From contig JAFGMM010000257.1 of the NCBI GenBank assembly GCA_016927535.1, forward strand, positions 1,761 through 65,760: a stretch of DNA of 64,000 bases, read 5' to 3'. The notes below the pieces were generated by a model. The model was not told the DNA's origin, did no database searches, and saw only the letters and a list, made by a program, of their open reading frames with translations. Numbering within the stretch: the stretch's first letter is position 1; each line of letters starts with the position of its first letter. Of the stretch, positions 19,028 to 47,200 are shown piece by piece. A program made the translations under genes and the position numbers. Origin of the DNA: Anaerolineae bacterium (GTDB lineage Bacteria; Chloroflexota; Anaerolineae; Aggregatilineales; JAFGMM01).

Positions 19028-22000
19028 CTACTCGCCTCCTTGCTCGGTTTGTTGATCGACGCCGGCCTCAGCGCCGTGTTTCCCATCGCCATTGGCAGGC
19101 TGTGAGCAGGCAAGCTCGGCAGCGCTGCCCAGACGGACAAACGTAGGCCGTCCCAACGCCGCGCCCAGTTCGCGCACCGCCGCGCGCACAATAGCATCGG
19201 GGTCGGTCGCGCCGCGCACCCGCGAGGTGATCTGGCGCAGCGTGCGCTCACGCAGCGCGCGCGCCTCGGTCTCCTGCTGCAAGCGCCGCCCGTCGATGGC
19301 GACCGCAGCTTGGTCGCGCAGCGTGCGATAGATGCGCTCGTCGCGCTCGGTGAAGTTCTGCGGCTCCGCCCAATTGTAGATCACCACACCGATCCAGCGC
19401 CCGCCGGAGCGCAGCGGCAAAACCACCGTCGCGCGCACGTTCTGGCGCCGTAGGCTCTCCAGCGCCGCCCCGGTCATCTGAGTATTGCGGGTCACATCCC
19501 CGACGAGCATGGGGTTATCAGAGTCTTCCAACCAGATATCCGCAAACGGATAGTCCGCCAGCGCAAAACGTGCGCCGACCATATTGCTCATCTCGCGCTC
19601 GCCGGTGTCGCTCTGCGCCATCACGTGCCCCCATTCAGGCCGGCCGGCTTCGCCCAGTTCCAGGTACACCAGCATCACCGCCTGCGCGCCCGCCTCAAGC
19701 CCGTAGCCGGCTACCGCGTCGAGCAAGCCCTGCGTGCTGCTCGCCGTCACGAGCGCCTGGCTGGCCTTATACAGCACCGAGGTCTCTTGCAAGACCTCCT
19801 CGGTCTGCTGCTGGCTCAAGAGACTTTGCACGGCGATGGCCGCCTGCGAGCCGATCGTCATCAAACGCCGCAGATCCATCTCATCATATTCGGTGGGCTG
19901 GTCGTTAAAAGCGTTGATATAGCCGATCCACTGCCCGCCGGCCACCAGCGGGATAAAGATCACACTGCGCGCACCGATGCGCTCGTAGGCCGCGCGTGTC
20001 TTGGCGTCCATACGTGGGTCAGATGCCACATCACAGGCATAAAGCGGCTCGTCGCGTGAAGCGGCCTGCACAAAGGAATAGTCGCTCAGATCCATGGGCC
20101 GGTTCAACATCCTGGACTGCGCAACCTCGTCCGTACCCCACATCGCCACCGGGATAATCTGTTCTGGCACCCGGTCGTCAATCGAAGGCCGGTTAAACAG
20201 CGCCAAGCCGGCCATGTCCATCTGCCCGATCAACGTGCTGTGCCGGATGGCATCTAAGATGCCGTCGAATGACCGGGCCGCGTTGATGCGCGCGCTGCCG
20301 TCGTAGAGCGCGCGCGTCTCAGCCAGCGTGGCCTGGGTCTGTTCGAAGAGGTTCTGGTTATCGATACGGGTCGCCATCTGCCGCGCCAGCGAGAGATAAG
20401 GCTGCATTTCCTCGTCGGTAAACTCGTGCTCTTCCTCGCTTTGCAGCATCAAAATCCCCAGTTGGCGCACCCCCACCCACAGCGGCAGCACCGCTGCCGC
20501 ACAGATATTCTGCCCGGCGAACACCGCGCGCGACCCGGTGTCGATGCGCGCGTCGTGGCGGATATCGGCAAAGAACAGCGGGTCTGGGCTAAGCAGACGG
20601 TGGAACAGCGGGAACGTCTGTGATGAATACTGCGTGCCAGGCGGCGCTGGCGGTGTGCCCGCACCGCTGTACCAGTTCGCCGCCACGATCATCGTCCCTG
20701 GCTCACTGCCGCCGCCCGGCTCGAAGAGCGCCAACACCGCCCGGTTGATCCCGGCCACCGGCACCTCTTCCAGCGCCGCCGCCACAATCGCCGGCAGGTC
20801 GGCGGCCTCGTTGATACGGCGGCCAGCGTTATAGAGACTCTGGTTAAGCGCCAGGTTCGCCTGAGTCTGGCGATAAAGCTGCTGGCTGCGCAGCGCCACC
20901 GCCGCCTGCGCGGTCATCGTCAGCAGTTGCCGCGCCTCGTGCTCGGCCGGCGCAAAGGGCCGGGGACTGTTCACCTCCACAAAGCCCACCCACTCCGCGC
21001 CGATCACCAGCTTGACGATCAGCGCACAATTAAAGGTGAGCAACTGCCGGTATGCCGGGCCGATGCGCGCATCGCCGGCCGCGTCGTTGCTGATAAAAAT
21101 CTCTTCCTCGCGCAGCCGCGCCACATTGGGCAGCATCCCCATTGCGAAGCGCTCCGGTACGTCGAGGAACTGGCCTTCGTGCCAGTAAGCCGCCGGCTGG
21201 AACCACTCCGGCGCGTCATCGCTCACCCACGGATGGTTAAAGAGCTGGATGGCAACCGACTCGCGCTCGCCTACGACAGTGCTCTGGCGCAGCGCTTCCA
21301 ACACCTGCCGGAACGTCCCGGCCCGGTTAATCAACTCAGCGCCTTCGTAGAGCGCGCGCGTCTCGGCCAGGGTAGCCTGGGTCTGCTCGAACAACTGGGC
21401 GCGCTGGATGGCGACCGACGCCTGAGTAACGACCGCTTGGAACAACTGCGCGTCGCGCTCGGTGATGTCCGGCGCATGGGGCGGGCGGGTTGCAGCGATG
21501 ACCCCGGCGACCCGGCTGCTGACGAAGACCGGCGCCTCGATGATCTTGCCCATAAGCGCCTTCAGCGACGGCAGCAAGCCGGTGATATCGGTATTGGTGC
21601 CGGCGTCGTTCAGCGTGACGGTCCGGCGCTCCTTTACCGCGATCACGGCAGGGTTGCGTGTGTCGCTAAGCGGCGTCGTGGTAAAGATCGTCGCGTCGGT
21701 TGCATTGACCCCCGCGCCCGCCACGCCTTGGAGCGTCTGCGCATCCTCGTCCAACACAGCAATCCAAGAATCGGCATAGCCCAACTCCTCCACCAATGCG
21801 CGCGTAATCGCGCCGTAGACGAGCTGCAAATCTGTCACGCCGCTGACGACCTCGGTAAACTGGTAAAGCGCCTGGGCCTCGCGCAGCGCGTTCTGCGTCG
21901 CCTGGAAGCGTAGTTGGCTTTGAAGCGCCACCGCCGCCTGTCCGGCCAGCGCCATCAGCCGGCGCACCCCGGCCTCCGGGATGTCGGTCGCCTCGCGCAT

Positions 22001-25000
22001 CCCTGCCGTCACCAGCCCGATCCACTGACCGCCCGCCACCAGGGGCGCGATCACCGAACTCCGAATATTCGCCTGCAAGGTCACCGCACGCGAGGCTTCA
22101 TCCAATCGGGCATCGGTCGCCACATCTCTCATGACCAGCGGCTCATCGGGACGGAGGACGTGCACGCTGGGGAAAACGCTCATCGGGACGGTTTGGCCGG
22201 TGCGCAGCAAGCCGCCCGACTCATCGACGTGCCATGACGCCATCACATATCCAGAGTCGGGCATGTCGCCGCCCGCCCAGGGCCGGTCGAACAACGTGAT
22301 GGCGGTGCCGTCGGCCTGGCCCAGGAAGGTGCTCTGGCGCAGCGCATCCAAGATCTCGGATGCCGTCCCGGCGGCGTTGATGCGCGCGCTGCCGTCGTAG
22401 AGCGTGCGGGTTTCGGCCAGCGCGGTCTGGGTTTGTTGCAGCCGGTTGATCGCCTGGATCGCCACCGCCGCCTGCCCGGCCATCGTCATCACACGGCGCC
22501 GGTACGTCTCGTCGAAGGCGACCGCCCGGCTCATCATCAGGTTAAACGTACCGATCCACTGGCCGGCGGCGACCAACGGTACGAAGAGCGCGCTCTTAGC
22601 CTGGAAAAACGTCTTGTACTGGGTGCGCGTCGCCGCATCAAGCCGGTGATCGGCATCCACGTCTCCGATGACGAGCGGCTCGTCCGGCTTGAGCAGCAGG
22701 CCGATGATCGACTGGTCCATGCTGAAACGCATCCCCGCCTGCACAACCGGATCGTCGTCACGCTCATCCCACGCCGCCGCGCTGTCGAAGTATTCGGGCA
22801 TGTCGTGGCCTAACCACGGGCGGTTAAACAGCGCGATCATCGCGCGGCTGGCAAACGGAAACTCGACGCCGGCGAGCATCGCCCCCAATACCTCGTCGAG
22901 TGTAGTAGCCGTATTGATCTGGGCGCTCGCTTGGTAAAGCGACTCGGTTTCTTTCAAAGACTCCTGGGTCTGTTTCAGACGCCGGATCGCCTCGATTGCT
23001 ACCGCCGCCTGCCCGGCCAGCGCAGTCAACCGCCGGAGCAGGGTATCGCCAAACTCGACCGGCTGGCTCGTGTTGAGGTTGAAGTTGCCGATCCACTGTT
23101 CGCCGGCCACCAACGGCACAAACGCCACCCCGCGCGCCTGGAGCGTTTCCCTCAAGAAGAGCACCCCCTCCGGCGCCAGGTAGCGCGGCGGATTCTCCAA
23201 ATCACCGACCAGGAGCGGCACGTCGCGCCCCAGGTGCGCCATGACCGGGAAGTCCTCCAGCCGCATCCGCATCCCCACCTCCACAGCCGGCTGCCCGGCG
23301 CGCACACCCCAGGCGGCGACGACCTCCTGGTATTGGGGCATCGCGTTATCTGACCAGGCGCGGTCGTAGAGCCAAATCATGGCATGCGCCAGGCCCGGCA
23401 GGCCGATGCCCTCCAGCATGGCGTGCAGCACCTCGTCCGGCGTCGTGGCCCGGTTAATCAGGCCGCTGGCGCTGTACAGCGCGGAGGTCTCCTGCAAGGC
23501 TACCTCGGTCTGTTGCAGCAGACGCCGGTTCTCGATCACGGTGCCGGCCTGATCGGTCAGGCTGACGATGCGGCGCACCTCCATCTCGCTCAACGCTACC
23601 GCTTCGGCGGACTGCCCGCTGACCAGCCCTACCCATTGCTCATTGACCACAATCGGGAAGAGCGCCACGCTCCGGAGTCCCATTTGCCGGTGCAGGTATT
23701 CACGCACCTGAGCATCGACCCGTTCATCGGCAGCGATATCTTCGACGACAAACGGCTTATCGGGCGCGAACAAATCCACCATCGGGAACTGGGCAAGATC
23801 AAGGTCAGCGCCAATCGGGATCGCCGGGCCGCCGGAGCGCTGCCAGAGCGCCGCAAGCGACACGGTTTCAGGGCGTGTCTCGACCCACGGGCGGTTAAAC
23901 AGTAGGATGCTGGCGCTGTCCAAGCGCTGCAAGGCGGTCGAGACCACCAGGGCATGCAACACCTCATCGACGGTGGTCGCGCGCACCACCTGGCCGCTGC
24001 CGACATAAAGCGCCTCGTTCTCGGCCAACGCGCGCTGCGTCTGCTCATCCAGCCGGCGGTTCTCCACCGCCAGCGCCAGCCGCTCGGCCACCGCTTCGAA
24101 CAGCAGTACCTCGTCCTCCGTCCAGTGACGCGACCGGTCGGCGTGGACACCCAGCGCGCCGACCGGCATCCCGGCCACCGTAATCGGCGCTACGAGCGCC
24201 GCATGGCCGCCGTCGCCCGGCATCGCCAGGCGCTGCCGGGAGGCTATCGCCTGCCGAATCTCCGTCTGGGCCGGCGCGTCGAAGTCCCCCACGTAACAAG
24301 ACATCGTCGCCTCGGCAGTCTTGGGATACTCCTCCCATGCCTCGCGCAACAGACGCCGTTCGGCGGCCTGCGCCTCGGCCAGCGCTGCCCTGGTCTGGCG
24401 CAGCGCTTCCTGGGTCTCGGCGAAAAGCTCGGCCCCCCGGATCGCGCCGGCCACTTGGTCGGCAATCGTCTGCAAAACCGCTACGTCCTCGTCGTCGAAA
24501 GCGCCCGGCTGCGTGCTCTGCACCGTCATCGCACCGATCACCTCGCCGCGCGCCCGCAGCGGCAGCGCCAATTCGGAGCGCGTATCGGGCAGGTGAGGGT
24601 TTTTAAAGTGAATCCGCTCCTGCCGCACATCGACGGTCGTCACAGGCCGGTTCTGCGCCGTGCACTGGCCGATCATCGACGTACCGCCCACCTCCAACCG
24701 GTGCCCATCCGCCAACATACGCCGGCCGGCCTCGCCGGTGCCGGCGCGCAGCACGGCGAACCGGCGCAAATCGTCGAGCAAGAACAGCCCCACATAATAC
24801 AGACCCAGGTGGTCGCGGGTCATCTCGACGACCTGCTGCATCAAAAACAGCGGGTCGGCGACGCCGGTCGTCGCCTGCGAGACCTGGGCCGCCGTCAGCA
24901 AGCCGCGCGTGCGCGCCGCAACGCGCTGCTCCAACATCCCCAACGACTCCACCACTTTATCGGCCAGCAGGTTGAACACCTCCGCCATCTCGCCGGTTTC

Positions 25001-26203
25001 ATCGCCGCGATTCACCAAAGCGCGGGCGCGCATATCCCCGGCGGCGAACTGGCGCGCGACCGCCAGTAAGCGCGAAATCGGCGAAACAATTACGCGGGAT
25101 AGAAACAACGACACCGCCGCGGCGAACAAGCCAAACAGCACCGTAACAATAATCGATGTCTGGCGCACATTTTCGATCAACTCATGAGCTTCGACCTGCG
25201 GCTGGTACACATAAAGCACCCAGTCCAGGCCGTGGATCACCCGGCGCTCCTCCGCATGCTCGATCATGGCGGTATCGATGGTAGCATAACCCACCACCAC
25301 CGGTTCACCGGTATAGTCGAGTAGTTGGGCGGATCCCTGCTTGGCCGCCTGGTACGTCGCTCCATACCAGGTTTGGGGCAGCATCGTCCCCACCCGGTTC
25401 AGGTCCTTCTCGGCCAGGATGACACCACCCTGGCGCGCCAGCGCCGCGCCTCCGGTCCGGCCAACCTGAAGCTGCGTCACGGCCAGCGCGACGCTATCCA
25501 GGCGAAAAGTGCTCTGCACCACCCCCACAACCGCGCGGCCGGCGCTGTAAATCGGTACCGCGATCTTCAAGTCGGTATACGCGCCGCCGGATTCCGGCAC
25601 GGCGCTGTCTAGGTAAAGCGCCCCCTTGCCGTCTTTATACGTCTTCAACCACCAATCCGCATCGGCATAGTAATAATGCGCCGGGCGGTCGGTGGCGGCG
25701 ACCAGCGCACCGAACTTGTCGGTCACCAAGATTTCCACGTGGTCCGGGAAGCTCTGCTGGTACTGGAGCAGTTGGGCGGTGGTGGCATTGCGCTCTGGAT
25801 CAATGACCTTCTGAACCAGGCTCGCGTCGTCGTCCCTTTCTTGCCACTGCGCTTCCATCGTCTCCAGGTCCATCTTGATGACATCCGGCCCGGCAGTGTA
25901 GAGATTATTCTCCTGCTCAACGGCGCGTTGGATGCCATCAACAAGCGCGATCCCGCGCACCACCGATAGCTGCTCGGCGAGCATATCGGCCAGGTAATTG
26001 ATCTGCGAGCCGGCCAACTCCTCGAAGTGCAAGCCGATAGAGGCGCTAAACCCGGCGACTGCCCGCGCACTATTGAGAAGACCGGCGCAAATCAACGCAA
26101 TCACGACCATCGACACGACGCCCACCAACACCTTGGCCTCGATAGACCAATCGGCGGGGCGCCAGAAACGGCGGCGTCTGCGCTCAAGCGATTGTGATGC
26201 CAT
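19028..26203 (-). CDS. Giant membrane sensor: TM, double-Cache-like ectodomain, TM, HAMP, ~10 GAF modules, family C-terminal module; no output domain
   Basis: TM helices lie near aa 22-45 and 348-372. HAMP is at aa 373-430 (nt 24914-25087; AAGDMRARA...GEMAEVFNLLA). A canonical GAF carries NPHLPDTRSELALPL. Eight ~180-aa LFNRPW-type GAF repeats occupy nt 19268-24040. Confidence 0.9.
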   Translation of the reverse strand: MASQSLERRRRRFWRPADWSIEAKVLVGVVSMVVIALICAGLLNSARAVAGFSASIGLHFEELAGSQINYLADMLAEQLSVVRGIALVDGIQRAVEQENNLYTAGPDVIKMDLETMEAQWQERDDDASLVQKVIDPERNATTAQLLQYQQSFPDHVEILVTDKFGALVAATDRPAHYYYADADWWLKTYKDGKGALYLDSAVPESGGAYTDLKIAVPIYSAGRAVVGVVQSTFRLDSVALAVTQLQVGRTGGAALARQGGVILAEKDLNRVGTMLPQTWYGATYQAAKQGSAQLLDYTGEPVVVGYATIDTAMIEHAEERRVIHGLDWVLYVYQPQVEAHELIENVRQTSIIVTVLFGLFAAAVSLFLSRVIVSPISRLLAVARQFAAGDMRARALVNRGDETGEMAEVFNLLADKVVESLGMLEQRVAARTRGLLTAAQVSQATTGVADPLFLMQQVVEMTRDHLGLYYVGLFLLDDLRRFAVLRAGTGEAGRRMLADGHRLEVGGTSMIGQCTAQNRPVTTVDVRQERIHFKNPHLPDTRSELALPLRARGEVIGAMTVQSTQPGAFDDEDVAVLQTIADQVAGAIRGAELFAETQEALRQTRAALAEAQAAERRLLREAWEEYPKTAEATMSCYVGDFDAPAQTEIRQAIASRQRLAMPGDGGHAALVAPITVAGMPVGALGVHADRSRHWTEDEVLLFEAVAERLALAVENRRLDEQTQRALAENEALYVGSGQVVRATTVDEVLHALVVSTALQRLDSASILLFNRPWVETRPETVSLAALWQRSGGPAIPIGADLDLAQFPMVDLFAPDKPFVVEDIAADERVDAQVREYLHRQMGLRSVALFPIVVNEQWVGLVSGQSAEAVALSEMEVRRIVSLTDQAGTVIENRRLLQQTEVALQETSALYSASGLINRATTPDEVLHAMLEGIGLPGLAHAMIWLYDRAWSDNAMPQYQEVVAAWGVRAGQPAVEVGMRMRLEDFPVMAHLGRDVPLLVGDLENPPRYLAPEGVLFLRETLQARGVAFVPLVAGEQWIGNFNLNTSQPVEFGDTLLRRLTALAGQAAVAIEAIRRLKQTQESLKETESLYQASAQINTATTLDEVLGAMLAGVEFPFASRAMIALFNRPWLGHDMPEYFDSAAAWDERDDDPVVQAGMRFSMDQSIIGLLLKPDEPLVIGDVDADHRLDAATRTQYKTFFQAKSALFVPLVAAGQWIGTFNLMMSRAVAFDETYRRRVMTMAGQAAVAIQAINRLQQTQTALAETRTLYDGSARINAAGTASEILDALRQSTFLGQADGTAITLFDRPWAGGDMPDSGYVMASWHVDESGGLLRTGQTVPMSVFPSVHVLRPDEPLVMRDVATDARLDEASRAVTLQANIRSSVIAPLVAGGQWIGLVTAGMREATDIPEAGVRRLMALAGQAAVALQSQLRFQATQNALREAQALYQFTEVVSGVTDLQLVYGAITRALVEELGYADSWIAVLDEDAQTLQGVAGAGVNATDATIFTTTPLSDTRNPAVIAVKERRTVTLNDAGTNTDITGLLPSLKALMGKIIEAPVFVSSRVAGVIAATRPPHAPDITERDAQLFQAVVTQASVAIQRAQLFEQTQATLAETRALYEGAELINRAGTFRQVLEALRQSTVVGERESVAIQLFNHPWVSDDAPEWFQPAAYWHEGQFLDVPERFAMGMLPNVARLREEEIFISNDAAGDARIGPAYRQLLTFNCALIVKLVIGAEWVGFVEVNSPRPFAPAEHEARQLLTMTAQAAVALRSQQLYRQTQANLALNQSLYNAGRRINEAADLPAIVAAALEEVPVAGINRAVLALFEPGGGSEPGTMIVAANWYSGAGTPPAPPGTQYSSQTFPLFHRLLSPDPLFFADIRHDARIDTGSRAVFAGQNICAAAVLPLWVGVRQLGILMLQSEEEHEFTDEEMQPYLSLARQMATRIDNQNLFEQTQATLAETRALYDGSARINAARSFDGILDAIRHSTLIGQMDMAGLALFNRPSIDDRVPEQIIPVAMWGTDEVAQSRMLNRPMDLSDYSFVQAASRDEPLYACDVASDPRMDAKTRAAYERIGARSVIFIPLVAGGQWIGYINAFNDQPTEYDEMDLRRLMTIGSQAAIAVQSLLSQQQTEEVLQETSVLYKASQALVTASSTQGLLDAVAGYGLEAGAQAVMLVYLELGEAGRPEWGHVMAQSDTGEREMSNMVGARFALADYPFADIWLEDSDNPMLVGDVTRNTQMTGAALESLRRQNVRATVVLPLRSGGRWIGVVIYNWAEPQNFTERDERIYRTLRDQAAVAIDGRRLQQETEARALRERTLRQITSRVRGATDPDAIVRAAVRELGAALGRPTFVRLGSAAELACSQPANGDGKHGAEAGVDQQTEQGGE

Positions 26204-26209
26204 AAGTCT

Positions 26210-28612
26210 CTAACCTTCTAAACCGGTTTCGTCCTTGTCGTTTTTAACTTCATCGTCATTTTCATTTTCTTCATCGAGCGCCGCGCCTAGATGCACATAC
26301 GCCCGCGAGCCTTTGAGGACATCGGTGAGCATCTCGGCGGTCACCCGCATCAGCGCTTGTACATCGCGCGCTTGCTGCATCTTATCGGAAATCTCGCGCA
26401 GCGTTTGCTCGCGCTCGGCGCGTGCACGGGTCTGTAAGAGCAGTTGGCGGTTCTCGGCCACCAGTGCCATCCGCCCCAGGATATCCTCGAACAACGCAAT
26501 CTCGTCGTCCGTCCACTTCCGCGTGTGGTTCTGGTCATACACACCCAGCGCGCCGATCACCTCGCCATGCAGCATCACCGGCCCCACCAGCGCGACATGT
26601 TCGGCGCCGGGGTCACGGATCGCGACCACCCGTTGATCTTCCAAAGCCTGCTTGATTTCCGCCGGCTCGATCACACCGCGCGGCGGCACACCCGGCTGGC
26701 GCGCCTCATAGCGCATCACCTGGTCGGTCTGGCGCCACGCCGGGCGCGCGCCGTCCGCCGGGCGCTCGGCCTCGGCTCGAGCAAGCGCAGCCTCGGTGGC
26801 GGCGAACAGCCGCGCATTGTCAATCGCAGCAGCCACCTGGTCGGCCATCGTCTGCATCACCTGGACATTCACCTCGTCGAACGCGGCCACATCCTCGCCC
26901 TGGATCGTCATTGCCCCGATTACGCGCCCGCGCGAGCGCAGCGGCAGCGCCATCTCGGCGCGCGTTTTGGGCAGCAAGGGATTGCGGAAATGGAGCTTGT
27001 CCTGGCCGATATCACGCTCGACCAGCGCATCCGCCTTGGCGACCGCCTGCCCAATCAGCGACGCGCCGCCCACCTCCAGCTTGTAGCCCTGCACAATCAT
27101 TTGCTGCCCGGCCTGGCCCGTCCCGGCCTGCAAAACCGCATAACGCCCCGCCTCATCAACCAGGAACACGCCGACATAATAAAGGCCGAATCGCTCGCGC
27201 ACCATGTCTACCACCCGGTACATCAACTCCTGCGGGTCTAGGATCAGCGTCGTAGCGCGCGAGACCTCGGCGGCGGCCTGCAAGCTGTGGGTGCGCTCGG
27301 CTACGCGCGCTTCCAGCGCAACAATCGACATGCGTAGCTCGCCCGCCATCTGGTTAAGCGCGCCGGCCAATGCCCCGATTTCATCCTGCGTGACCACCTC
27401 CACCTGCTGCGAAAAATCACCCGCAGCGACGCGCGACGCTACCTGCGTCAACTGGTGGAGAGACCGGGTAATCTGACGGTTCACCAGGACCGTCGCACCG
27501 ACCAGCACCGCCAGCACCACACCGTCCACCAGCGCCAGCCCGACGAGCAAGTTCTGCGCCGGCCGGAATGCCTCGGCCTGGTCGATCTCGGCGATGAGCG
27601 CCCATGTGACCCCGGCGCTGCGATCAGGCGGTTGCAACACGACCGGCTGCCATGCACTTAACACCGGCACACCCCGGTAATCGGTGATGAGGGCAGCACC
27701 GGCATGACCTTCGCTAAAAGCCGAAAGGCTGGCGACCGTATCGACTTTATAATCGGGATTCAGAATCGTACTGGGCATATCCGGCGTCCGGAAGCGCGAA
27801 TCGTTGCGGAACAGCCCATCGTCGCCCACCACATAGGTCTCGTCGGTCTCGCCCAGGCCCTCACGCCCATTAAGAATTTCATTAAGGGCATTGGCGGGTA
27901 CCTGGAAAATCAACACGCCGACAAACTGGGTGCCGTCGATAATCGGCGCTCCAATGAACGCTGCCGGCCCATCAGATGGCTGGTAATACTCGAAGTCGGT
28001 CATGACCGAGGCCCGCTTGGTCTGCCGGATATATTCGAAAGCCTGCGCGATGTTGGTATCGTAGTAAGGACCATCGACCAAGTTGGTGCCGAAATCATCC
28101 TCTTTGACCACCGTGAACAAAACATCGCCGTCGGGCGAGACGATAAAGACATCATAATATCCGTGGCGGTCGAGGTAGGCGCGCAAAATCGGATAAAGTA
28201 CCCGGTGCGAGCGACTGTAGGCTGAGCCGTCGTCGGCGTCGATCAACTGCGGCTTGTCCAGATAGCGCCCACGGAGTGTGTCCAGCCTAGCCGCCATCGT
28301 CTCGCCCAGGCTGGCGTCGCGCTTGACGGCCCCTTGCAGCTCCCGCACATACTGGCGGAGCAGCACATCGGCTGCCAGGGTTTCGATATCGAGGCGGCGT
28401 TCGCCGGACCACTGCTCCAGGGCGGCGGCGCGGTCCGCGCGCACGGCCACCAAGCTGGCGAGGGTTTGCATCTGCAAAGCGCTGCGCACACCGATATACG
28501 CTATCGCGCCGACCACCAGCATCAACATCACGCCGAGCGCAATAAACCCGATCAGCAGCTTGGCGCGGATCGTGCGCGCCTGCCAGAACCGCCAACGTAC
28601 CTGTGTCTGCAT
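26210..28612 (-). CDS. Cache-HAMP-GAF membrane sensor without output domain (800 aa)
   Basis: An N-terminal TM helix is followed by a double-Cache-like ectodomain (GETDETYVVG motif). A second TM helix and HAMP (AAGDFSQQV...IGALAGALNQMA) come next. The GAF carries NPLLPKTRAEMALPL. A short GAF-like module and the family C-terminal module complete the protein. Confidence 0.9.
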   Translation of the reverse strand: MQTQVRWRFWQARTIRAKLLIGFIALGVMLMLVVGAIAYIGVRSALQMQTLASLVAVRADRAAALEQWSGERRLDIETLAADVLLRQYVRELQGAVKRDASLGETMAARLDTLRGRYLDKPQLIDADDGSAYSRSHRVLYPILRAYLDRHGYYDVFIVSPDGDVLFTVVKEDDFGTNLVDGPYYDTNIAQAFEYIRQTKRASVMTDFEYYQPSDGPAAFIGAPIIDGTQFVGVLIFQVPANALNEILNGREGLGETDETYVVGDDGLFRNDSRFRTPDMPSTILNPDYKVDTVASLSAFSEGHAGAALITDYRGVPVLSAWQPVVLQPPDRSAGVTWALIAEIDQAEAFRPAQNLLVGLALVDGVVLAVLVGATVLVNRQITRSLHQLTQVASRVAAGDFSQQVEVVTQDEIGALAGALNQMAGELRMSIVALEARVAERTHSLQAAAEVSRATTLILDPQELMYRVVDMVRERFGLYYVGVFLVDEAGRYAVLQAGTGQAGQQMIVQGYKLEVGGASLIGQAVAKADALVERDIGQDKLHFRNPLLPKTRAEMALPLRSRGRVIGAMTIQGEDVAAFDEVNVQVMQTMADQVAAAIDNARLFAATEAALARAEAERPADGARPAWRQTDQVMRYEARQPGVPPRGVIEPAEIKQALEDQRVVAIRDPGAEHVALVGPVMLHGEVIGALGVYDQNHTRKWTDDEIALFEDILGRMALVAENRQLLLQTRARAEREQTLREISDKMQQARDVQALMRVTAEMLTDVLKGSRAYVHLGAALDEENENDDEVKNDKDETGLEG

Positions 28613-28615
28613 CCT

Positions 28616-30973: not shown

Positions 30974-30974
30974 C

Positions 30975-33794: not shown

Positions 33795-33808
33795 ACTGTC
33801 TCCCGCGT

Positions 33809-38082: not shown

Positions 38083-38095
38083 ACGTCACTCACCC

Positions 38096-39100
38096 TTACT
38101 CTTCGGCGCGCAGGATCGTCGAGGCCGCCTCCAACACGTCATCAGGCACCTCAATCCCCAACGCATCCGCCGCCTTCAAGTTAACGGTCAGGAACATCTC
38201 CGGCGCTTCTACCGGCAGCGAACCGGGATCGGCGCCCTCCAGCACCAGGTCGGCCAGGCGGGCCATCTGCGCGCCTATTACCGCCGAATCGGGGCCGAAA
38301 GCCAGCAGCACGCCGTCATCAATCAAGTTGACGCTGTTCACGGCCACGGGCACCTTGCGCTCGTAGGCCAGCGCGAACAAATCGGCCCGGCCTGTCGTGA
38401 ACGCCCGCCCGCCGATGTACAGCATCGCGTCGATATCCTCCGGGACCGCGCTCAGCAGCGCCACGACATCCTCCTCCGCGTTCACCTCTGCCAGCACAAG
38501 CTCGACCCCCAACGCCTGCGCGGTATTCTCCAATGCAGACAGAATGGCAGGCATGTTTCCCGACTGGCCGAAAGGCACCAAGACGCGCTCCGTGCCCGGC
38601 GCCGCCTTAACCAGCCAATCTAGCCGCTGGGCCACCGCGACGTCGGCAAAACCCGTGCTCACGCCGGTAAGGTTGCCGCCCGGCTTCTGCAAGCTCTCTA
38701 CCAGGCCGCTCGCATCAGGATCGATCACCGTACCGAACACAACCGGGATCGGGTCGCCGCCGGCCTCGTTCGTCACCGCTTTGGCAATAGTAGTCGGCGA
38801 GTTAATGAGCGAAACCATCAAATCCACTTCCTTATCGACGTAATCCTCTGCCGTCGCCCGGAGCGCATCCTCGTCTTGGACGGCGCCTTCGTAGAAATAG
38901 GTCACGTTCCGGCCTTCGACATAGCCCAGCCCGGTCATCGTCTCCTTAAAGGCATCAATCGTCACATCGACCGTCGATACCGAGTTCAAAATCCCGACGG
39001 TAAATTGCCTTTCTTGCGGTTCGGGCGTCCCGTTGTTACACGCACTCGCCAGGAACACCACCGCTATCCCAAGCGCCAGGCGACAAAACCTCTCGCACAT
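38096..39100 (-). CDS. Lipoprotein solute-binding protein of the ABC_sub_bind (COG2984-like) type, orphan
   Basis: Signal peptide with a probable lipobox (VVFLASAC). Family-typical motifs are GGNLTGVS and LTVNLKAADALGIEVPDDVL. The start was moved to MCERFC (39100), which removes an arginine-rich overlap with the upstream gene. No permease or ATPase gene is nearby. Confidence 0.75.
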   Translation of the reverse strand: MCERFCRLALGIAVVFLASACNNGTPEPQERQFTVGILNSVSTVDVTIDAFKETMTGLGYVEGRNVTYFYEGAVQDEDALRATAEDYVDKEVDLMVSLINSPTTIAKAVTNEAGGDPIPVVFGTVIDPDASGLVESLQKPGGNLTGVSTGFADVAVAQRLDWLVKAAPGTERVLVPFGQSGNMPAILSALENTAQALGVELVLAEVNAEEDVVALLSAVPEDIDAMLYIGGRAFTTGRADLFALAYERKVPVAVNSVNLIDDGVLLAFGPDSAVIGAQMARLADLVLEGADPGSLPVEAPEMFLTVNLKAADALGIEVPDDVLEAASTILRAEE

Positions 39101-39164
39101 CCGGCTTCTCCCTCTCAAAACAAAACCTTGAACCCTCGCCGACGCCCTCATGACTCCTCGCCTA

Positions 39165-40844
39165 TCACTCAGCCCCATGCCCATTCCCCAACCCGCCGGC
39201 CTGCCCATCCACGCCGCCGAACCGCACCGTCACCGCGCGCGCCTTCAACGCCTGCCGGATCTCCTGGGCGGCCAGCGCCAGCATACCCGGCATATCAGAA
39301 GCGCCTTGCAGCCGCGCCGTCACCTCGTTCATCAGGCGCTCGCGCTCGGCCAGGCGCTGCGAATCCTCGAACAGACGCGCACTATCCAGCGCAATCGCCA
39401 GGCGGTTGACCACCTCCTGCGCCAACTCCTGGGCGTTCTGGTCCCAGTTCACCCCGTCGCCGGAAAGTTCCACCGCGCCCAGCGCGGTATCCCGCAAGAC
39501 AATCGGCAGCGCCAACACCTGCCGGTCGCCCTCCCGGCGCAGCGACATCTCCCGCGTGCCCATCACCGCGCTCAGGCCCGATGACCAGACGTGCCGCTCG
39601 TGCAGTTCGCCCGCCTCCCAATCGAAGCCCACCGTCTCCTCGCCGCGCCCGCTCAGGTAACCCTGCCAGGCCTGCCCGGTGAGCCGGCGGTTCAGGCGCT
39701 CAACCTCCGCCAGGCGCGCTTGGGTCTCGGTCAGCAGCCGCTCGCGCTCATCTAGGTGGCGCTGCGTCTCCTCCAGCGAATGGATGCGCCCGACCGTAAC
39801 CGCGAGTTGGTTCGCCAGTGTTTGCAGCCCGGTAATATCCTCCGGCGTGAAAGCATCCCTGTCCGTACTCTGCACATCCAACACACCGATCAACGACTCG
39901 CCGGTCTGCAAAGGCAGCGCCAACTCGGTACGAGTGTCGGGCAGCAGCGGGTTAGGCTGGTAGATTGGGTCGGTAGAGTCGGCCAACACGGCCTCGTTCA
40001 GCGCCGCCGCGCGCCCAACCACGCTCCGCGAGCCGACGCCCAACCGGTGCCCGGCAGTCAGCAAGCGCCGTCCCACGCGCCCGGTGCTGGCCCGCAGCGC
40101 TGCATACGCCCTCTCATCGTCCAACAAAAACACCTGCACATGGTAAAAGCCAAACTGCTCGCGGATCATCGCAACCGTCCGGCGCAGCAGTTCGTCCAAC
40201 GGGCGCGGCTCCCCGATCGCTTTGCTCACCTCGGCAGTCGCGCGCAGCCGCGCCGCCGTGTTCACCGAGCGCCGCAGACTCTGCTCCAGGCCGCCGGAGA
40301 AAAGCCGCTGGAACAGCATAGACACCACCAACATGCCCACGACAAAAATCGGCTGCGTTTCCATCTTGAAGCTCGACTGCATCAGCAGGACACCCCGGGC
40401 CTCCAGGACCGCACCGACGACGAACAACGCGACGCCTATCGCCGTCGTGAGCGCCGCTTCCGCGCGCCCCAGCAGCGCCGCCGCCGCCATAATCGCCAGC
40501 GCCGCCGCCAGCGCCGCCGTGGCGCCGCGCCCCAACCCGAATATGTTGACCGACGCGCTGACAATCAGAAAACCGACGATCAAATAGCTCGCCAGGCGCA
40601 GCCTGCCGGTCTGCACCAGGACGATGTTCAGACCGACCAGGACATAGAACACACCGATGATCGATGCAATGACCGGCGGGAGGAGGTTCAAAAACGCGCC
40701 GACGACGACAAATACAATAGTCAGCATCGCACACAACACAACATTAATAGACAGTACCCACTGCGCTCGCTGCCGGTCCACCGGGTCTCGATATAAGTAA
40801 TGCACCTGATAAGGGTGAAATTGAAACCGCTTCATAACAGCCAT
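39165..40844 (-). CDS. 6TM-GAF membrane sensor without output domain (559 aa), paralog 3 of 3
   Basis: About 6 N-terminal TM helices with no HAMP. The GAF carries FYHVQVFLLDD and NPLLPDTRTELALPL. A short GAF-like module and the C-terminal module follow. Confidence 0.9.
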   Translation of the reverse strand: MAVMKRFQFHPYQVHYLYRDPVDRQRAQWVLSINVVLCAMLTIVFVVVGAFLNLLPPVIASIIGVFYVLVGLNIVLVQTGRLRLASYLIVGFLIVSASVNIFGLGRGATAALAAALAIMAAAALLGRAEAALTTAIGVALFVVGAVLEARGVLLMQSSFKMETQPIFVVGMLVVSMLFQRLFSGGLEQSLRRSVNTAARLRATAEVSKAIGEPRPLDELLRRTVAMIREQFGFYHVQVFLLDDERAYAALRASTGRVGRRLLTAGHRLGVGSRSVVGRAAALNEAVLADSTDPIYQPNPLLPDTRTELALPLQTGESLIGVLDVQSTDRDAFTPEDITGLQTLANQLAVTVGRIHSLEETQRHLDERERLLTETQARLAEVERLNRRLTGQAWQGYLSGRGEETVGFDWEAGELHERHVWSSGLSAVMGTREMSLRREGDRQVLALPIVLRDTALGAVELSGDGVNWDQNAQELAQEVVNRLAIALDSARLFEDSQRLAERERLMNEVTARLQGASDMPGMLALAAQEIRQALKARAVTVRFGGVDGQAGGLGNGHGAE

Positions 40845-40846
40845 CC

Positions 40847-42526
40847 TTAACGCTCCGCTCCCTCGGCCTGGCGCAGCCCCAGGCGAATCGAGGCCCGATC
40901 TGCACCCAGCAGGCGGACCAGTTCGCTCACCGCCGTCGAGAGCATCTCATCGACCGCAGTCTGCTGCTGCAACGCCGCCGCAACCTCGCTGACCTGGAAC
41001 TCGCGGTCGGCCAAGCGCTGCGAGCGCTCCACCAGCCGCACATTCTCCACCGTCACCGCCAGCCGGTCGGCCACCGCCTGCGCCACCTCCAGCGCATCGT
41101 CGTCGTGCAGCCCCACCTCGCCCTCGACCTCAATCGCACCGATGACCGTATTCCGCAAGACAACCGGCACCGCGACTATCAGCCGCTCGCCCTCGATATC
41201 GGCGGTCGGCTGCGCTTCGCGCGCCGCGCGGAGCATCATCGGCGTCCAAACCGTATCGACGCCGGGCCGGTTCTCTTGGAAAGTAATCCCCACCACCCCC
41301 TGCCCGCGCGCCTGCAAATACTCCGACCACGCCCGGCGTGTAAGCTGGCGGTTCAGGCGCTCGATCTCGCGCAGGTTTGTTTCGGTCTCGCGCAGCAGCA
41401 CTTCGCTCTCGACGGCGCGTTGCGCCTGCCCGGTAAACAACCGGGCATTCTCAATCGCCGCCGCCAACTGGTTCGCCATCACCAGGAACACTTCGATGTC
41501 CTGCTCGCCAAAGGCATACGGCTTCCGGCTCTGTAAATCCAACGCGCCGATGACTCGTTCGCCCCGGCGAACCGGCACGGCCAGCTCGGTGCGGGTGTCG
41601 GGCAAAAACTCGTTCTTCCGGTGCACTTCATCGACATCGGTGTCTGCCGCCAACACCGGCTCACCGGTCACCGTCACCTGGCCGATCACACTCCGGGAGC
41701 CGACCGCCAGCCGGTGCCCCCGGTCCAGCAAACGCTGCCCGGCCTCGCCCGTGCTGGCATGCAGCACCGCGTATTCTCCCGCCTCGTCGATCAAGAAAAC
41801 CTGCACGTGATACAGCGCAAACTCGCCGCGAATCTGATCGACAACTTGGTCGAGCATGGTCGCCAAATCCAACGTGGACATAGCAGTCTGGCTCACCAGG
41901 GCGGCGACGCGCAGCCGGCGCCCGGCCTGCTGCGCATCTCGCAGCGAGACGTCCCGGTCATACAAGAAGTACCAGAGGATCATCCCATCCGCGAACAGAA
42001 TCAGCGCGCCAAACAGGATCGGATCGTACTCGTAGGTGCTGGAGATGAATAACCCCGCCCGTTGAAGCAGATGAATCACGACAATGCTCGCCAGCACCGC
42101 CAGGACCGAGGCGGCCAGCCCACCGACGCCCAGCAGGCTCGAAGCCAGCAGCACCACCAGCGAATACATCAGGACGGAGGACCGGTCCAGGCCCGATGAG
42201 CGCACGAAAAGCACACTGAACACGAACAGGACGGCGATGAGGGAAACACTGGCGATGTGCCAGCGCCCGGTCTGCGCCAGCAGGTAAATGCCCCCCAGTA
42301 TCGGGACAATATAAACCGCCCGAGATAAAACCACTCCGAGCCAGACATCCCAATCGGGTAGGATGTCCGGGACCGACACCGACGCCATGCCGACAAGCGC
42401 AAGCGCCAACAGCACACTGCTGAACCAGATCAGGAAGCGCGCCCGGCGCGCCTCGATGGGATCATCGTAGTGATAGCGAAGCGTCACCAGCCGGCGGAGC
42501 GGCGCAAGCCAACGATTCCAACTCAT
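40847..42526 (-). CDS. 6TM-GAF membrane sensor without output domain (559 aa), paralog 2 of 3
   Basis: Same architecture as 39165..40844. The GAF carries LYHVQVFLIDE and FLPDTRTELAVPV. The start overlaps the upstream stop by 4 nt (ATGA). Confidence 0.9.
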   Translation of the reverse strand: MSWNRWLAPLRRLVTLRYHYDDPIEARRARFLIWFSSVLLALALVGMASVSVPDILPDWDVWLGVVLSRAVYIVPILGGIYLLAQTGRWHIASVSLIAVLFVFSVLFVRSSGLDRSSVLMYSLVVLLASSLLGVGGLAASVLAVLASIVVIHLLQRAGLFISSTYEYDPILFGALILFADGMILWYFLYDRDVSLRDAQQAGRRLRVAALVSQTAMSTLDLATMLDQVVDQIRGEFALYHVQVFLIDEAGEYAVLHASTGEAGQRLLDRGHRLAVGSRSVIGQVTVTGEPVLAADTDVDEVHRKNEFLPDTRTELAVPVRRGERVIGALDLQSRKPYAFGEQDIEVFLVMANQLAAAIENARLFTGQAQRAVESEVLLRETETNLREIERLNRQLTRRAWSEYLQARGQGVVGITFQENRPGVDTVWTPMMLRAAREAQPTADIEGERLIVAVPVVLRNTVIGAIEVEGEVGLHDDDALEVAQAVADRLAVTVENVRLVERSQRLADREFQVSEVAAALQQQTAVDEMLSTAVSELVRLLGADRASIRLGLRQAEGAER

Positions 42527-44226
42527 CCCTCACCTCCCTCGTCCGGCGGCGGTTCGGGCAGCCACCCTTCCGGTAGACCAATCCGCACCGAGACGCGCGG
42601 CGCGCGCAACACCTGGCTCAGGCCCTTCGCAGCCGTCACCAGCGCCGAATCCACGTCGTTGTGCGCCGATTGGAGGCGCGCACCGATGGCGTTGACCATC
42701 ACTTCGCGCGCAGCGATGCGCTGCACTTCGGCAAACAGGCGTGTGCTGTCCGCCGCCAAGCCCAGGCGTTCCCCCACCTGGCGCGCCATCTCACGCTGCT
42801 GCGCCGAGGGAAGCGAATCCAGCTCAAACTCCATCGCGCCGACGACTTGCCCCGCGACCCGGATCGGCACCCCTACCACCGGGCCGGCCGGCCCTTCCAC
42901 CGCCACCACATCGCCCTGCGTCACCGCCTGCTCAAGCGCCGGCGTCCACTGCTTATCGCGCCAAACATTCTGGTCTTCCAGATTCAGCACCAAGCTCTCG
43001 TCCATATCCAGATCGCGCAGATACGCCTCCCATGCCTGGCCCGTCCGCAGCGCTTCGGCCTGCTGAAGACGCGCCAGCCGCATCTTCAACTCGCCGATCT
43101 CGCGCGCGCCGGCATCCAGGCGTTCCTGCATCAACCGGAACTGCCGGGCCCGCTCGGCAGCCGCCGTGACCAGGTTCGCCATCGTCTGGAGACCTTCAAC
43201 CAGGTCCAGCGTCAGATCGTCGGGCCGGCTGCTTTGCAACTCCATCACTCCGAACAGCGCCTCGCCCACCATCATCGGCAGCACCAAGTAAGATCGCGTA
43301 CCGGCCAGGAGTTGGTCGTCCGGCAAGTCCTCACCCTGCGACATATCGCTCACCAGCGCAAACTGCCCGGAGAGCGCCACCCGCCCGATTTTGTGCGCTT
43401 GGTCCGCCGGCCAAGTCTTCGCGCTCTGCACGGCGTCTATATCCACCGCGTCGCTGCTGGCGACCAGAGTCAGCGTCTCTGCCTCGCGGTCCAGCGAATA
43501 GATGCGAATCAACTCAATTTGGCCGTAAGTATCCATGACGACATCGAATGCCCGGTCGAAAAGCTGCCTGACATCGGGAGCTGCCGCCAAACGTTCGCCC
43601 AGCCGGTATAACAGGCCGGCGCTTGCCAGACGGCCCTCGGCGCGCTCGGTCACTTGGTTCAGATTCCCGATCAACGCCCCCGCCGTCCCCAAAATCAGGA
43701 AACAAAAAATTGGGAGCATAAGCGCGACGACGGCCATGCGCGGCCCGGCCTCGGTCAGGGCCGGGGTTAAAAGGCCGGCGCTTTCGGCCCAGATCGCAAA
43801 GAGCGTATAAAACACGACGGCGAGCGTGTAGAACAGCGCGCCCTGCCATTCGGCGATGATGACCACAAACAGCACCGTGATCGGGATGATAGCACCCAGG
43901 GCACTGGTCACCCCGTAGGGCCACAGGGTAACCGCCGTGGTGATAAAGCCGCCGAACAAGAAGACATTAACCGCCAGGCCAAGCCTTCCCTGGCGCAGCA
44001 GAAGCGCCGACAAGCCGCTCACCGCCACCAACCACACCATGCCCAGCACCCCGGCAGCCGGCACCGGCGCCCAGTTTGTTACATATACAACCAGGTCGAT
44101 CCCCAGCAAGGCAATCCCGACGACCGGCAACACCACCAACAGCACGCCGAAGCGCCGGCCCCGTTCCTGGTCCAGGCGCGACGGGTACTGGTCAAGATCA
44201 AACCATCGGGTCAGGCGTGTATTCAT
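42523..44226 (-). CDS. 6TM-GAF membrane sensor without output domain (567 aa), paralog 1 of 3
   Basis: Multi-TM N-terminus, a more divergent GAF, a short GAF-like module and the C-terminal module. The start overlaps the upstream stop by 4 nt. Confidence 0.85.
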   Translation of the reverse strand: MNTRLTRWFDLDQYPSRLDQERGRRFGVLLVVLPVVGIALLGIDLVVYVTNWAPVPAAGVLGMVWLVAVSGLSALLLRQGRLGLAVNVFLFGGFITTAVTLWPYGVTSALGAIIPITVLFVVIIAEWQGALFYTLAVVFYTLFAIWAESAGLLTPALTEAGPRMAVVALMLPIFCFLILGTAGALIGNLNQVTERAEGRLASAGLLYRLGERLAAAPDVRQLFDRAFDVVMDTYGQIELIRIYSLDREAETLTLVASSDAVDIDAVQSAKTWPADQAHKIGRVALSGQFALVSDMSQGEDLPDDQLLAGTRSYLVLPMMVGEALFGVMELQSSRPDDLTLDLVEGLQTMANLVTAAAERARQFRLMQERLDAGAREIGELKMRLARLQQAEALRTGQAWEAYLRDLDMDESLVLNLEDQNVWRDKQWTPALEQAVTQGDVVAVEGPAGPVVGVPIRVAGQVVGAMEFELDSLPSAQQREMARQVGERLGLAADSTRLFAEVQRIAAREVMVNAIGARLQSAHNDVDSALVTAAKGLSQVLRAPRVSVRIGLPEGWLPEPPPDEGGEG

Positions 44227-47200
44227 GACTGTTCTTCGCCCCCATTCGCGCTGCGCTGCCCAAGCCGCATCCGCACTCGCGCCCGCTTCGCGCCCAGCGC
44301 CACGCCTAGCTCGCGCAGCGTCGTTTCCAGCATCGTCTCGACATCGGTGCGCTCGGTCAATTGAGTCGAGACCCGGCTCACGGTCCGCTCGCGCTCGGCG
44401 CGGTCGCGCACCTCGGTAAAGAGCCGCGCGTTCTCCATCGCCACCGCCACCTGCCGGGCCGCCTGCGCCATCAGCGCCCGGTCGTCCTCGGAAAAGGCGC
44501 GCTCCTGCCGGCTGGCGACGTTAATCGTACCCAGCGTTTGTCCGCCGGCGATCAACGGGACCACCAGCGACGCACGAAGGCCCTGCCGGGCAAGCGCCTG
44601 TTCATCCAGGCGCACCGAATCGGTTACATCGTCGGTGATGGACGGCTCGCCGCTGATGAAGACCTGGCCTACCACACTGCCCGCGACCGGCACCGGCTGG
44701 CCGGCGTCCAACTCGATACGCGATCCTTCCAGCGCGACGATGCGCAGGGTTTGGCCGTCGGGGTTGGGCAGGCACAGACTCGCCCGGTCCACATCCAGCA
44801 GCGCGGTCACCTCCCGACTCACCACCTGGATAATCTCCCGCATCTCCAGCGATGCGCTGAGCAGCTGTGACAACCGGTTCAACAGCGCCAAACGGCTGGT
44901 CTGGCGCTGAGTCTGGGCGAGGAGTTCCTGGTTTTCCAGCCGCGTCACAATCTGCCCGGCGACAGTCTGGCCGATGCGCGTCTCGCGCGCATCGAAGGCA
45001 TACGGGGTCGTGTGCGAGATGATTAACATGCCCTGATCCTCACGGCGCGCCACCATCGGAAAGGCAGCAAACGCCGCGATCCCCTGGCGGCGGAGTGCAT
45101 CAGCATCCCGCGCCAGGATCAACGGGTGATCAGCAACATCACTCACCGACACCGGCTGCCGGTCGTCGATCACCGGGCGCATGACCGCGAGAACCGGCAT
45201 CACCCGGTCGATAGCGTCGATATCGTGCGAAGACAACCGGGCCAGCACACGCATCCCGGTGATCGCGCCCACCGGGTCGCGCTCGTAGCGCGAGATCAGC
45301 GCACCGTCCAGGTGCGGGAATGCGTGCGCCAGCACGGCGGTAGCCAGATCGACCGGGGAGACTGCGCGCAGCACCGCCTGCCCGGTATCGAACAGCGCCC
45401 GGCTTTCTTGCAGCGCGGCCTGGGTTTGGTCAAACAACTGTTGGTTTTGATACGTCACCGCCATCTGGCCGGCCAGCGTCGAAAGCGCGCGCACCTGGGT
45501 TGGCGAGAAGACATGCGGACGGCTCACGCCCAGCATCACAAAGCCGAGCACTCGCCCGCCAATCTCCATCGGCAAGTTCACCATCGCGCGGATGCCGCGC
45601 TCGACAAAGAAGGCCACGCCGTCCAGGTCGAAGAGATCGGAGGCCTCGACGTTCTCCACCACGACCGGCTCGCCCTTCAACACTTCCTGGTAAAGCGGCG
45701 CCAGCGGATCGCCGTATAGCGGCTGCTTCAAATCGAGCCGCTTCGCCTCATCGCCGCTCACCGCCACCGGCGTATGGGCCGACTCGATGCTCCCGGTATC
45801 GGGATCATAGTCAAACAACACGATCATCGAGGCATGCACCAAGCCGGCGGTGAAGTGGCATATCGCCAGCAGCATCTCGGCCAAGTCGGTCGCGTCGGTA
45901 ATGCGGCGGGCCGCCTCATACTGGCGAAGCGCTTCCTCAAGCGCGCTCCAGGTTTGCTCGACCAGGCGTTGATTACGGATCACCACCGCCGCCTGCCCGG
46001 ATAGCGACTGGTAAGCGCGGTGTTCTTCCGGCGCCATAGCGCGCGGCTCGCAGTACATCACCACCAGCACGCCGATGCGCTCGGCGCCGATGGTGATGGG
46101 GAACACCGCAAACGACCGGGCGTCGAAGCCGGCGCGGATGGCCTCGGCGATGCGCGAGGCCATCCGCGCCGCCGGCGGCGGGTTATCCAGGTCTTTGACG
46201 ACCAGCGCCGGCGCTCCGTTGACGCCGAACAAGCGGCCCAAGTAAACCAGATAGGGATGGTCGCGCCCGAATGCTTCACCGGGCCGGTCGTTCTCGCCGG
46301 CGGTGCGATCCCAGTAATCCGCGATCTCGATGTATTCGGTGCCGTCGGCGTCCGCCTGCCACAGCCCCAACGCCATCCGGTCAGCGTCGTGCTGCTCGCC
46401 ATACTCGACCAGCCCGTCGAACATCGCCTTGATATCGCTGCCACCGGTGATCTTCCGGCTCGCTTCATAGAGCGTCTCGGCCTCCATAAGAGCCTGCTGG
46501 GTCGTTTCGATCAAACGCTCGCGCTCGACGGCGGCCTCTTTCTGCGCCGTGATGTCGCGGCCCATCCCCACCAACCCTATGATGTTACCCATTTGGTCGC
46601 GGAGCGGAATCTTAGAAGTCGAAAACCAGATCTCCGTGCCGGTTGTCATGTTGAACGTTCGCTCTTCGATGTCGAGCAGCGCCTCGCCGTCCTCGATCAC
46701 ACGCCGCTCGTCCTCGCGGTACTGCCGGCTCAGGTCTTCGGGGAAGAAATCGAAGTCAGTCTTGCCCAGCGCCGCCTCGAAGTCATCGACCCCCAGCGAA
46801 CGCATCGTGGGCAGGTTGTAGAGCAGGAAACGGCCTTCGCAGTCCTTGACATAAACATTGTCCGGGAGGTTATCGATCATCGTGCGCAGCAGGTTGCGCT
46901 CGTCGGCCAGCGCCGTCTGCGCTTCCTGGATGTCCTCGATCACGGCCTGCATCCGCGCCAGGAGCCGCCGGTTGTCCACCGCGACCGAAACCTGGTCGCG
47001 CAGCGACGCATAGATGCGCTCGTCGCGCCCTTCGAACGCCTGCGGCGCGGTCCAGTGCAGATGCAGCAGCCCGACCCAACGCCGCCCCGCCGTCAGCGGC
47101 AAGACGATCACCGCGTGCTGGCCCAGTTCAGCCAAGCGCTGCCGGGTCGCCGCATCAATACGTTCATCTTGCTGCGCATCGCCGAACAAGTACGGCTGGT

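Follow-up and report, generated by a model that had tools for sequence, protein, structure and literature searches.

We describe here a C-terminal module of about 44 residues that closes ten sensor proteins encoded in one operon of an Anaerolineae bacterium (Chloroflexota), found in a stretch of 64,000 nucleotides of contig JAFGMM010000257.1 (hereafter the window). Judged by sequence, this module is homologous to the α1-α2-β1 start (helix-helix-strand) of GAF domains of the phytochrome/cyanobacteriochrome type. It takes the form of a conserved helical hairpin, derived from GAF, whose strand folds back and which prolongs the last signaling helix. We propose, with a probability of roughly 45%, that the module is the shared coupling end of these sensors and acts by binding a partner, inferred to be the hybrid histidine kinase encoded next to them.

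The ten sensor genes are co-directional and lie at 19028-52148, among twelve long open reading frames (ORFs) found on the minus strand between 52148 and 10669. A first-pass annotation, made from the letters alone, had placed a common module at the end of each sensor, and its coordinates prove accurate: minus-strand translation returns the peptides it had quoted, the ten peptides can be aligned, and from each of them 9-32 residues remain to the stop codon of its long ORF. The modules are listed below in operon order, together with the domains of each sensor, the tail that follows the module and the score against a profile of all ten.

44265..44396, minus strand: module 1, end of A2641 (gene 44223-52148; six PAS and nine GAF domains, cytoplasmic), 13-residue tail at 44226-44264; 58.3 bits; preceded by a full GAF with its own α1-α2-β1
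42577..42711, minus strand: module 2, end of B567 (gene 42523-44226; six transmembrane helices, GAF, coiled coil, mini-GAF), 17-residue tail; 61.4 bits
40877..41008, minus strand: module 3, end of C559 (gene 40847-42526; six transmembrane helices, GAF, coiled coil, mini-GAF), 9-residue tail; 64.7 bits
39216..39347, minus strand: module 4, end of D559 (gene 39165-40844; the protein modeled with AlphaFold), 16-residue disordered tail; 68.4 bits
35977..36108, minus strand: module 5, end of F713 (gene 35941-38082; dCache, HAMP, GAF, mini-GAF), 11-residue tail; 63.3 bits
33839..33970, minus strand: module 6, end of G710 (gene 33809-35941; dCache, HAMP, GAF, mini-GAF), 9-residue tail; 62.7 bits
31023..31154, minus strand: module 7, end of H939 (gene 30975-33794; seven transmembrane helices, dCache, HAMP, GAF, mini-GAF), 15-residue tail; 66.3 bits
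28667..28798, minus strand: module 8, end of I826 (gene 28616-31096; transmembrane segment, HAMP, GAF, mini-GAF, full GAF), 16-residue tail; 67.8 bits; preceded by the full GAF
26285..26416, minus strand: module 9, end of J800 (gene 26210-28612; dCache, HAMP, GAF, mini-GAF variant), 24-residue acidic tail; 68.1 bits
19127..19252, minus strand: module 10, end of K2391 (gene 19028-26203; dCache, HAMP, ten GAF domains), 32-residue tail ending in GGE; 56.6 bits; preceded by a full GAF

A 44-position profile of these modules, run against the six-frame ORFs of the window, recovers the ten sites alone (56-68 bits), the next ORF scoring 4.6 bits and the best of five shuffled-ORF controls 8.4 bits. Because this profile, the source of the scores listed above, was built from the ten window modules and is thus circular, it was rebuilt from 414 copies of other genomes; the non-circular version gives the window modules 20-47 bits, with the next window ORF at 4.3 bits and the best shuffle at 11.5 bits. 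Applied to the internal GAF starts of the twelve proteins, the module profile stays below 5 bits, indicating that the modules are a type of their own and not recent truncations of neighboring repeats.

The resemblance to a GAF start is specific. Against all sequences of the PDB, the ten-module profile matches 6OAP at residues 141-181 (E=2.4e-9), followed by 6BHN (3-41), 3OOV (6-39), 2LB5 and 8W26 (14-53), each the start of a solved GAF domain; apart from GAF starts, nothing else of note was retrieved. In hhalign, the module falls on columns 7-46 of the sensor family's own first GAF. The first-pass annotation had read the module as the first third of a GAF domain, cut after the first strand and incapable of a complete fold, and both parts are borne out: the match to GAF structures is limited to α1-α2-β1, with nothing beyond the first third, and after β1 there are just 9-32 low-complexity residues. 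With the canonical N-terminus of such domains (6OAP, 6BHN, 2LB5, 8W26, 3OOV) the module thus shares about 40 residues of homology, the helix-helix-strand order and the contact topology, and, as in tandem GAF arrays, it follows the C-terminal helix of the preceding domain. It differs in that the chain ends after β1, as the last folded element, lacking β2 to β4 (the ligand pocket) and β5-β6-α5. As a fragment it consequently fails as a GAF domain, with no five- or six-stranded sheet, no ligand pocket and no closing α5. Searched alone against Pfam and NCBIfam, the modules fall into no family, and single copies stay below the Pfam thresholds of PF01590, PF13185 and PF13492.

Structural modeling and residue couplings point the same way. 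An AlphaFold2 model of D559 (559 residues, 82-sequence alignment) has a mean predicted local distance difference test (pLDDT) score of 91 and consists of a canonical first GAF, a 66-residue helix, a reduced mini-GAF and then the module. The module appears as a helix, a turn and a second helix: a single helix at 469-513 is α5 of the mini-GAF continuing into α1 of the module, and after a turn α2 spans 518-533. The β1 segment (536-543) is modeled as coil, with pLDDT falling from 87 to 63, and the end is disordered. A Foldseek search with the whole D559 model returned ordinary GAF matches only, driven by the first GAF. In a mean-field direct-coupling analysis of 596 non-identical segments running from β4 to the module (effective number 434), the couplings within the module describe an antiparallel α1/α2 hairpin (512-521, 512-525, 511-528, 508-530), with β1 running back along α2 (524-540, 518-542, 533-541). 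The canonical GAF N-termini of the same proteins show an equal coupling topology.

The module is as well conserved as the domain core beside it, its mean column entropy being 2.22 bits versus 2.27 bits for the adjacent β5-β6-α5 core, and two of its polar residues, E502 and E528, are each 95% conserved. Its terminal position is conserved as well: in 111 of 120 database homologs of D559 the module is present, at a distance of 4-42 residues from the C-terminus, the other nine being mostly proteins with a weaker copy or kinases. A profile of the module plus the preceding helix retrieves 14,214 cluster representatives at E<=1e-3, and in 90 of the best 150 of these the module is C-terminal. We further compared 77 genome loci, nearly all from metagenome-assembled genomes of Anaerolineae or other Chloroflexota. 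They hold 386 module-bearing ORFs in co-directional tandem arrays, with up to nine per 20 kb; in 385 of the 386 the module lies <=80 residues from the stop codon, and none is internal. In databases, members of this family are named just 'GAF domain-containing protein'; in the full-text literature search, neither the module, nor a split or partial GAF, nor an operon of this type turned up.

Other features of the sensor ends reported by the first-pass annotation fared as follows. The ten proteins had been called output-less, in agreement with Pfam, which finds transmembrane, dCache, HAMP, PAS and GAF regions only and no enzymatic output domain. The Gly/Glu/Asp-rich character of the end also stands, the ten post-module tails having a G+E+D fraction of 0.31-0.56 and a net charge of 0 to -9; across 215 family members, this region is rich in G, A, E, P, S and D, and hydrophobic residues are nearly absent. 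The H-box of the kinase does sit at the equivalent position, since its HisKA (residues 1947-2014) follows the last GAF helix, where the sensors have the module. The motif N.RLFE.[ST]Q, said to precede every module, survives as a loose consensus but not as a rule, a permissive regular expression matching ahead of only four of the ten modules.

Two side observations concern particular sensors. In the subfamily of K2391 (window 19031-19126; P0083, P0140, P0149, P0196 and P0215), a conserved G[ST]AxEL follows the module, and GGE, GGK or GGQ closes the protein. Such endings occur in 21 of 215 proteins, versus about two expected by composition, and may be a C-terminal short linear motif. Additionally, the first ~190 codons of the genes at 42523-44226, 40847-42526 and 39165-40844 encode a six-helix transmembrane domain shared by three paralogous sensors, which has no Pfam match and is confidently modeled by AlphaFold.

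The sensors are embedded in a two-component operon. From 5' to 3', the window has first a pair of single-domain response regulators, then the ten sensors with an ABC gene among them, and finally the hybrid kinase and a fusion of a pyridoxal-phosphate (PLP) enzyme with a receiver, with most junctions spaced by -4 to +15 nt. Related loci on long enough contigs keep the order of two response regulators, a variable number of module-bearing sensors, hybrid kinase and PALP-REC protein. The further genes are:

52680..53057, minus strand: single-domain response regulator, operon gene 1; the same slot is filled in related loci
52243..52680, minus strand: second single-domain response regulator; its slot is also filled in related loci
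38096..39208, minus strand: ABC_sub_bind (TrpX-like) periplasmic binding protein, within the sensor array and without the module (Pfam); in the same place in locus L078
10669..19026, minus strand: hybrid histidine kinase with five PAS domains, GAF and mini-GAF domains, HisKA, HATPase and four REC domains (Pfam); candidate shared partner of the ten sensors
8965..10653, minus strand: threonine-synthase-like PLP enzyme with a fused receiver domain; follows the kinase here and in related clusters
7321..8610, minus strand: kinase with REC, HisKA and HATPase domains, downstream of the operon at a distance of 354 nt

The kinase ORF as called mechanically begins with a GTG at 19251, within the coding region of K2391. 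Its true start is likely the ATG at 19026, 1 nt past the K2391 stop; the 75 codons upstream of this ATG are rich in Arg, Ala and Cys when read in the kinase frame, like an out-of-frame reading of GC-rich sequence. The gene at 38096-39208, an eleventh gene within the array, is by Pfam an ABC substrate-binding protein and not a sensor. ABC_sub_bind genes also occur inside the arrays of L027, L057 and L073, and the protein may be a ligand-binding co-sensor of the adjoining membrane sensors. The PLP enzyme-receiver fusion, whose receiver is C-terminal, invariably comes after the hybrid kinase in this type of operon, making it an unusual enzymatic response regulator and perhaps the actual output of the system.

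The module is the one element common to a large family of sensors whose inputs vary widely (six-helix transmembrane domains, dCache, HAMP, PAS and GAF arrays), and it extends without a break the helix that ends the last sensor domain. In the mechanism that we favor, the surface that β5-β6-α5 covers in a complete GAF would stay open to bind a partner. Binding could then pass movements of the sensor's signaling helix to the kinase.

Related clusters suggest what such a partner might look like. In 29 of 35 kinases that follow these arrays in other genomes, the N-terminus carries an orphan β5-β6-α5 (hhalign E 1.3e-9), which we call the socket. These kinases begin with a basic peptide (MPKKPKIDKRLNKLF-like), continue through 60-100 low-complexity residues into a highly conserved 55-residue element, and then enter PAS/GAF-HisKA. 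Against the PDB, the 55-residue element matches the last ~54 residues of GAF domains (DevS 100-153 of 153, 6BHN 123-173 of 180, 6OAP 257-308 of 316), and several of the structures matched are those whose first ~40 residues match the module. In the canonical GAFs of the family, the N-terminal and C-terminal thirds are directly coupled (T223-L347, H235-D323, K208-N345), so the module and the kinase N-terminus together would make three helices on a three-stranded sheet. In the reverse direction, a search of an independent metagenome collection for the socket gave 58 N-terminal sockets, with at least one module-bearing ORF upstream in all 29 contigs having more than 3.5 kb of upstream sequence. 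Moreover, rare natural fusions exist: P0242 and P0271 contain a module, a 14-residue linker, an orphan β5-β6-α5 and a second module. These stretches (residues 199-358 of P0242, 413-572 of P0271) are a tandem duplication of the unit β5-β6-α5, module and GLPSGEA; the duplication is common to both proteins, which are 76% identical, implying that it predates their divergence.

Taken together with the module, the socket raises the idea of a natural split GAF that works as a plug-and-socket connector. Each sensor would carry the plug (α1-α2-β1) and the kinase the socket (β5-β6-α5) after a flexible linker; in related clusters the two would rebuild a reduced GAF, joining sensor helix to kinase helix, and many interchangeable inputs would have a single kinase to share or compete over. 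For lineages such as that of the window, the socket would lie elsewhere or have been replaced. We consider this specific form of docking unlikely, if well worth keeping in view.

Several observations weigh against kinase docking and the split GAF. No ORF of the 64 kb, the window's own kinase included, starts with an orphan β5-β6-α5, yet the window modules are fully conserved; the N-terminus of this kinase is instead helical, followed by PAS, and has no relative among the comparison loci. In L079, the closest relative with genomic context, the kinase likewise lacks the socket. That plug and socket occur together would be expected simply from their belonging to one operon, and is not proof of contact. 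Couplings between the module and the C-terminal third of GAF are weak and mutually inconsistent, and are measurable in cis only. In an AlphaFold model of P0271, which weighs little because its alignment is only two sequences deep over the second unit, β1 of the first module is a low-confidence coil unpaired with the orphan hairpin. As the window kinase has no socket, candidates for the partner in the window would be the module of a second protomer or paralog, with which it would make a four-helix bundle, a different face of the kinase, or a socket protein whose gene lies beyond the 64 kb.

Most related clusters have one more gene, between the last module-bearing sensor and the hybrid kinase, encoding a ParA/MinD-like ATPase (~265 residues, KGGVAKTT Walker A). 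Examples are L069:4363-5160 and L028:9971-10762, where the kinases start at L069:5123 and L028:10728 with the basic peptide MPKKPKIDKRLNKLF first. Of the 44 contigs in the reverse search with sufficient upstream sequence, 43 had a ParA-like gene there. The ATPase and the basic kinase peptide are suggestive of a ParA-cargo pair, by which the kinase would be positioned. Neither a ParA gene nor the basic kinase peptide was found in the window, and basic peptides at the N-terminus of the first large sensor of each array follow no consistent pattern.

The strongest competing explanation is that the module is a structural cap. The hairpin would merely end and stabilize the dimeric signaling helix, and two hairpins would close into a four-helix bundle that takes the place of DHp without its catalytic function and binds no other protein; the sensors would then act otherwise, for example through heterodimerization via coiled coils or GAF domains, or through ligand buffering. 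Such a cap fits the plain hairpin of the AlphaFold model, which prolongs α5 and leaves β1 unpaired, the strongest couplings all lying inside the module, the absence of a complementary piece on the window kinase, and the position of the module, which is that of DHp in the kinase. However, a cap would need neither the 95% conserved polar E502 and E528 nor the whole hydrophobic pattern of the GAF N-terminal third, β1 strand included. Furthermore, numerous GAF proteins lack any such cap at their end, and it would be a coincidence that the kinases of most related clusters carry the complementary orphan. On this balance we judge a pure cap somewhat unlikely, though a serious contender to a partner-binding end.

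Another alternative turns on the domain that precedes the module, which is a full GAF with its own α1-α2-β1 in three window proteins (A2641, I826 and K2391) and a mini-GAF in the other seven. The mini-GAF, as at residues 334-499 of D559 (nt 39348-39845) or about 1290-1415 of the kinase, consists of a long coiled-coil helix with AWxxYL and a reduced GAF body of ~100 residues. Pfam GAF models detect its last third only, and a dedicated family model would be justified. That GAF profiles match it in their second half only suggests circular permutation: in a mini-GAF without its own α2-β1, the module could fold back in cis, the two making one permuted GAF. Beyond the half-profile match, this agrees with four family members (P0172, P0193, P0217 and P0232) that have a module-type α1-α2-β1 directly before the mini-GAF body, in canonical order, and with a few mid-ranked couplings from the module to the preceding α5/β6 (R481-Q513, L491-M521, G456-V540). 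Completion in cis is nevertheless very improbable, given that a full GAF precedes the module in the three proteins named, as in other family members, that the continuous α5-α1 helix (pLDDT ~90) sets the hairpin apart from the mini-GAF body, and that the couplings between module and GAF are weak, incompatible with one another and unenriched at canonical contact positions. A block correlation with canonical GAF couplings gave r=0.002 (rank 378 of 625) in a test of low power that also fails on its positive control.

That the module is a non-functional remnant of truncated GAFs, or similar to them through coiled-coil periodicity only, is hardly credible: the fragment cannot form a complete fold and single copies score below every Pfam threshold, but it is conserved like the core, kept at the C-terminus in thousands of proteins, matched specifically to GAF starts, specifically coupled within itself, and distinct from the internal GAF starts from which a recent truncation would derive. 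The first-pass annotation had argued for selection over decay, and the entropies, the 111 homologs and the 385 C-terminal copies in 76 other genomes agree. It had also named what would speak against its view, namely an unrelated helical hairpin, which the GAF homology and specific couplings contradict, and coiled-coil periodicity alone, which the conserved counterparts in orthologous clusters contradict.

As a conserved end that may bind a partner, the module invites comparison with known signaling elements. It resembles DHp (HisKA) in being a hairpin that prolongs a signaling helix, at the position that HisKA takes in the operon's kinase, and a parallel module dimer would form a four-helix bundle; the resemblance is one of shape only. 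The module was rejected as a DHp, having no conserved phospho-acceptor His in its columns, no Pfam HisKA match and no HATPase_c behind it, while its sequence relates to GAF. The S-helix, a connector with an 'ERT' signature that lies between two signaling domains and was set apart from inter-GAF linkers (PMC1592074), is similar in that the module also has a conserved polar motif, A-x-R-E, in a helix leaving a sensor domain. An S-helix was likewise rejected, the motif of the module being ERE[RQ] (E502 at 95%, then R/Q, then L/T/A/I) with no domain following.

Functionally the nearest analogy is with chemoreceptor arrays, in which variable sensor domains feed through one conserved tip into a shared kinase, and ParA-like ATPases position the arrays in some species. 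The operons described here are alike in having many output-less paralogous sensors with one conserved end, one co-encoded kinase with receivers and, in most related clusters, a ParA-like ATPase; the likeness is one of logic, with no homology behind it. They differ in pairing GAF/PAS sensors with a two-component hybrid kinase. No MCP signaling domain (MCPsignal), CheA, CheW, CheR or CheB was found in the scanned regions, and Pfam finds MCPsignal in none of the ten sensors. Two further systems offer analogies without homology. RetS acts on GacS by direct contact, and the module-bearing proteins could similarly be kinase-less sensors acting through association with a kinase. Split PH domains assemble from two polypeptides, just as half-domains on separate chains would here complete one fold.

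Elsewhere in the window, two neighborhoods are of separate interest. Adjacent genes at 3140-5041 and 5079-6020 on the plus strand encode EAD8-Metallophos and EAD8-CHAT proteins; effector-associated domains such as EAD8 are typical of conflict or defense systems. On the minus strand, neighboring paralogs at 55360-56814 and 56967-58652 have LysM and SdrD B-like domains.

Output-less sensors are common in genome censuses, and the way they signal is mostly unknown in the field. With more than 14,000 cluster representatives sharing one conserved terminal element and one conserved set of genomic partners, the module turns this into a directly testable question. For annotation, the point is that the label 'GAF domain-containing protein' conceals two distinct things, a C-terminal module that can be defined and a type of operon. 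If the plug-and-socket arrangement were true, it would be, to our knowledge, the first natural case in which the fold of a small-molecule sensor is divided between sensor and kinase, and a ready-made modular connector for sensor-kinase engineering. More broadly, if the modules dock to the kinase, these operons would be the two-component counterpart of chemoreceptor arrays, bringing many inputs to one kinase.

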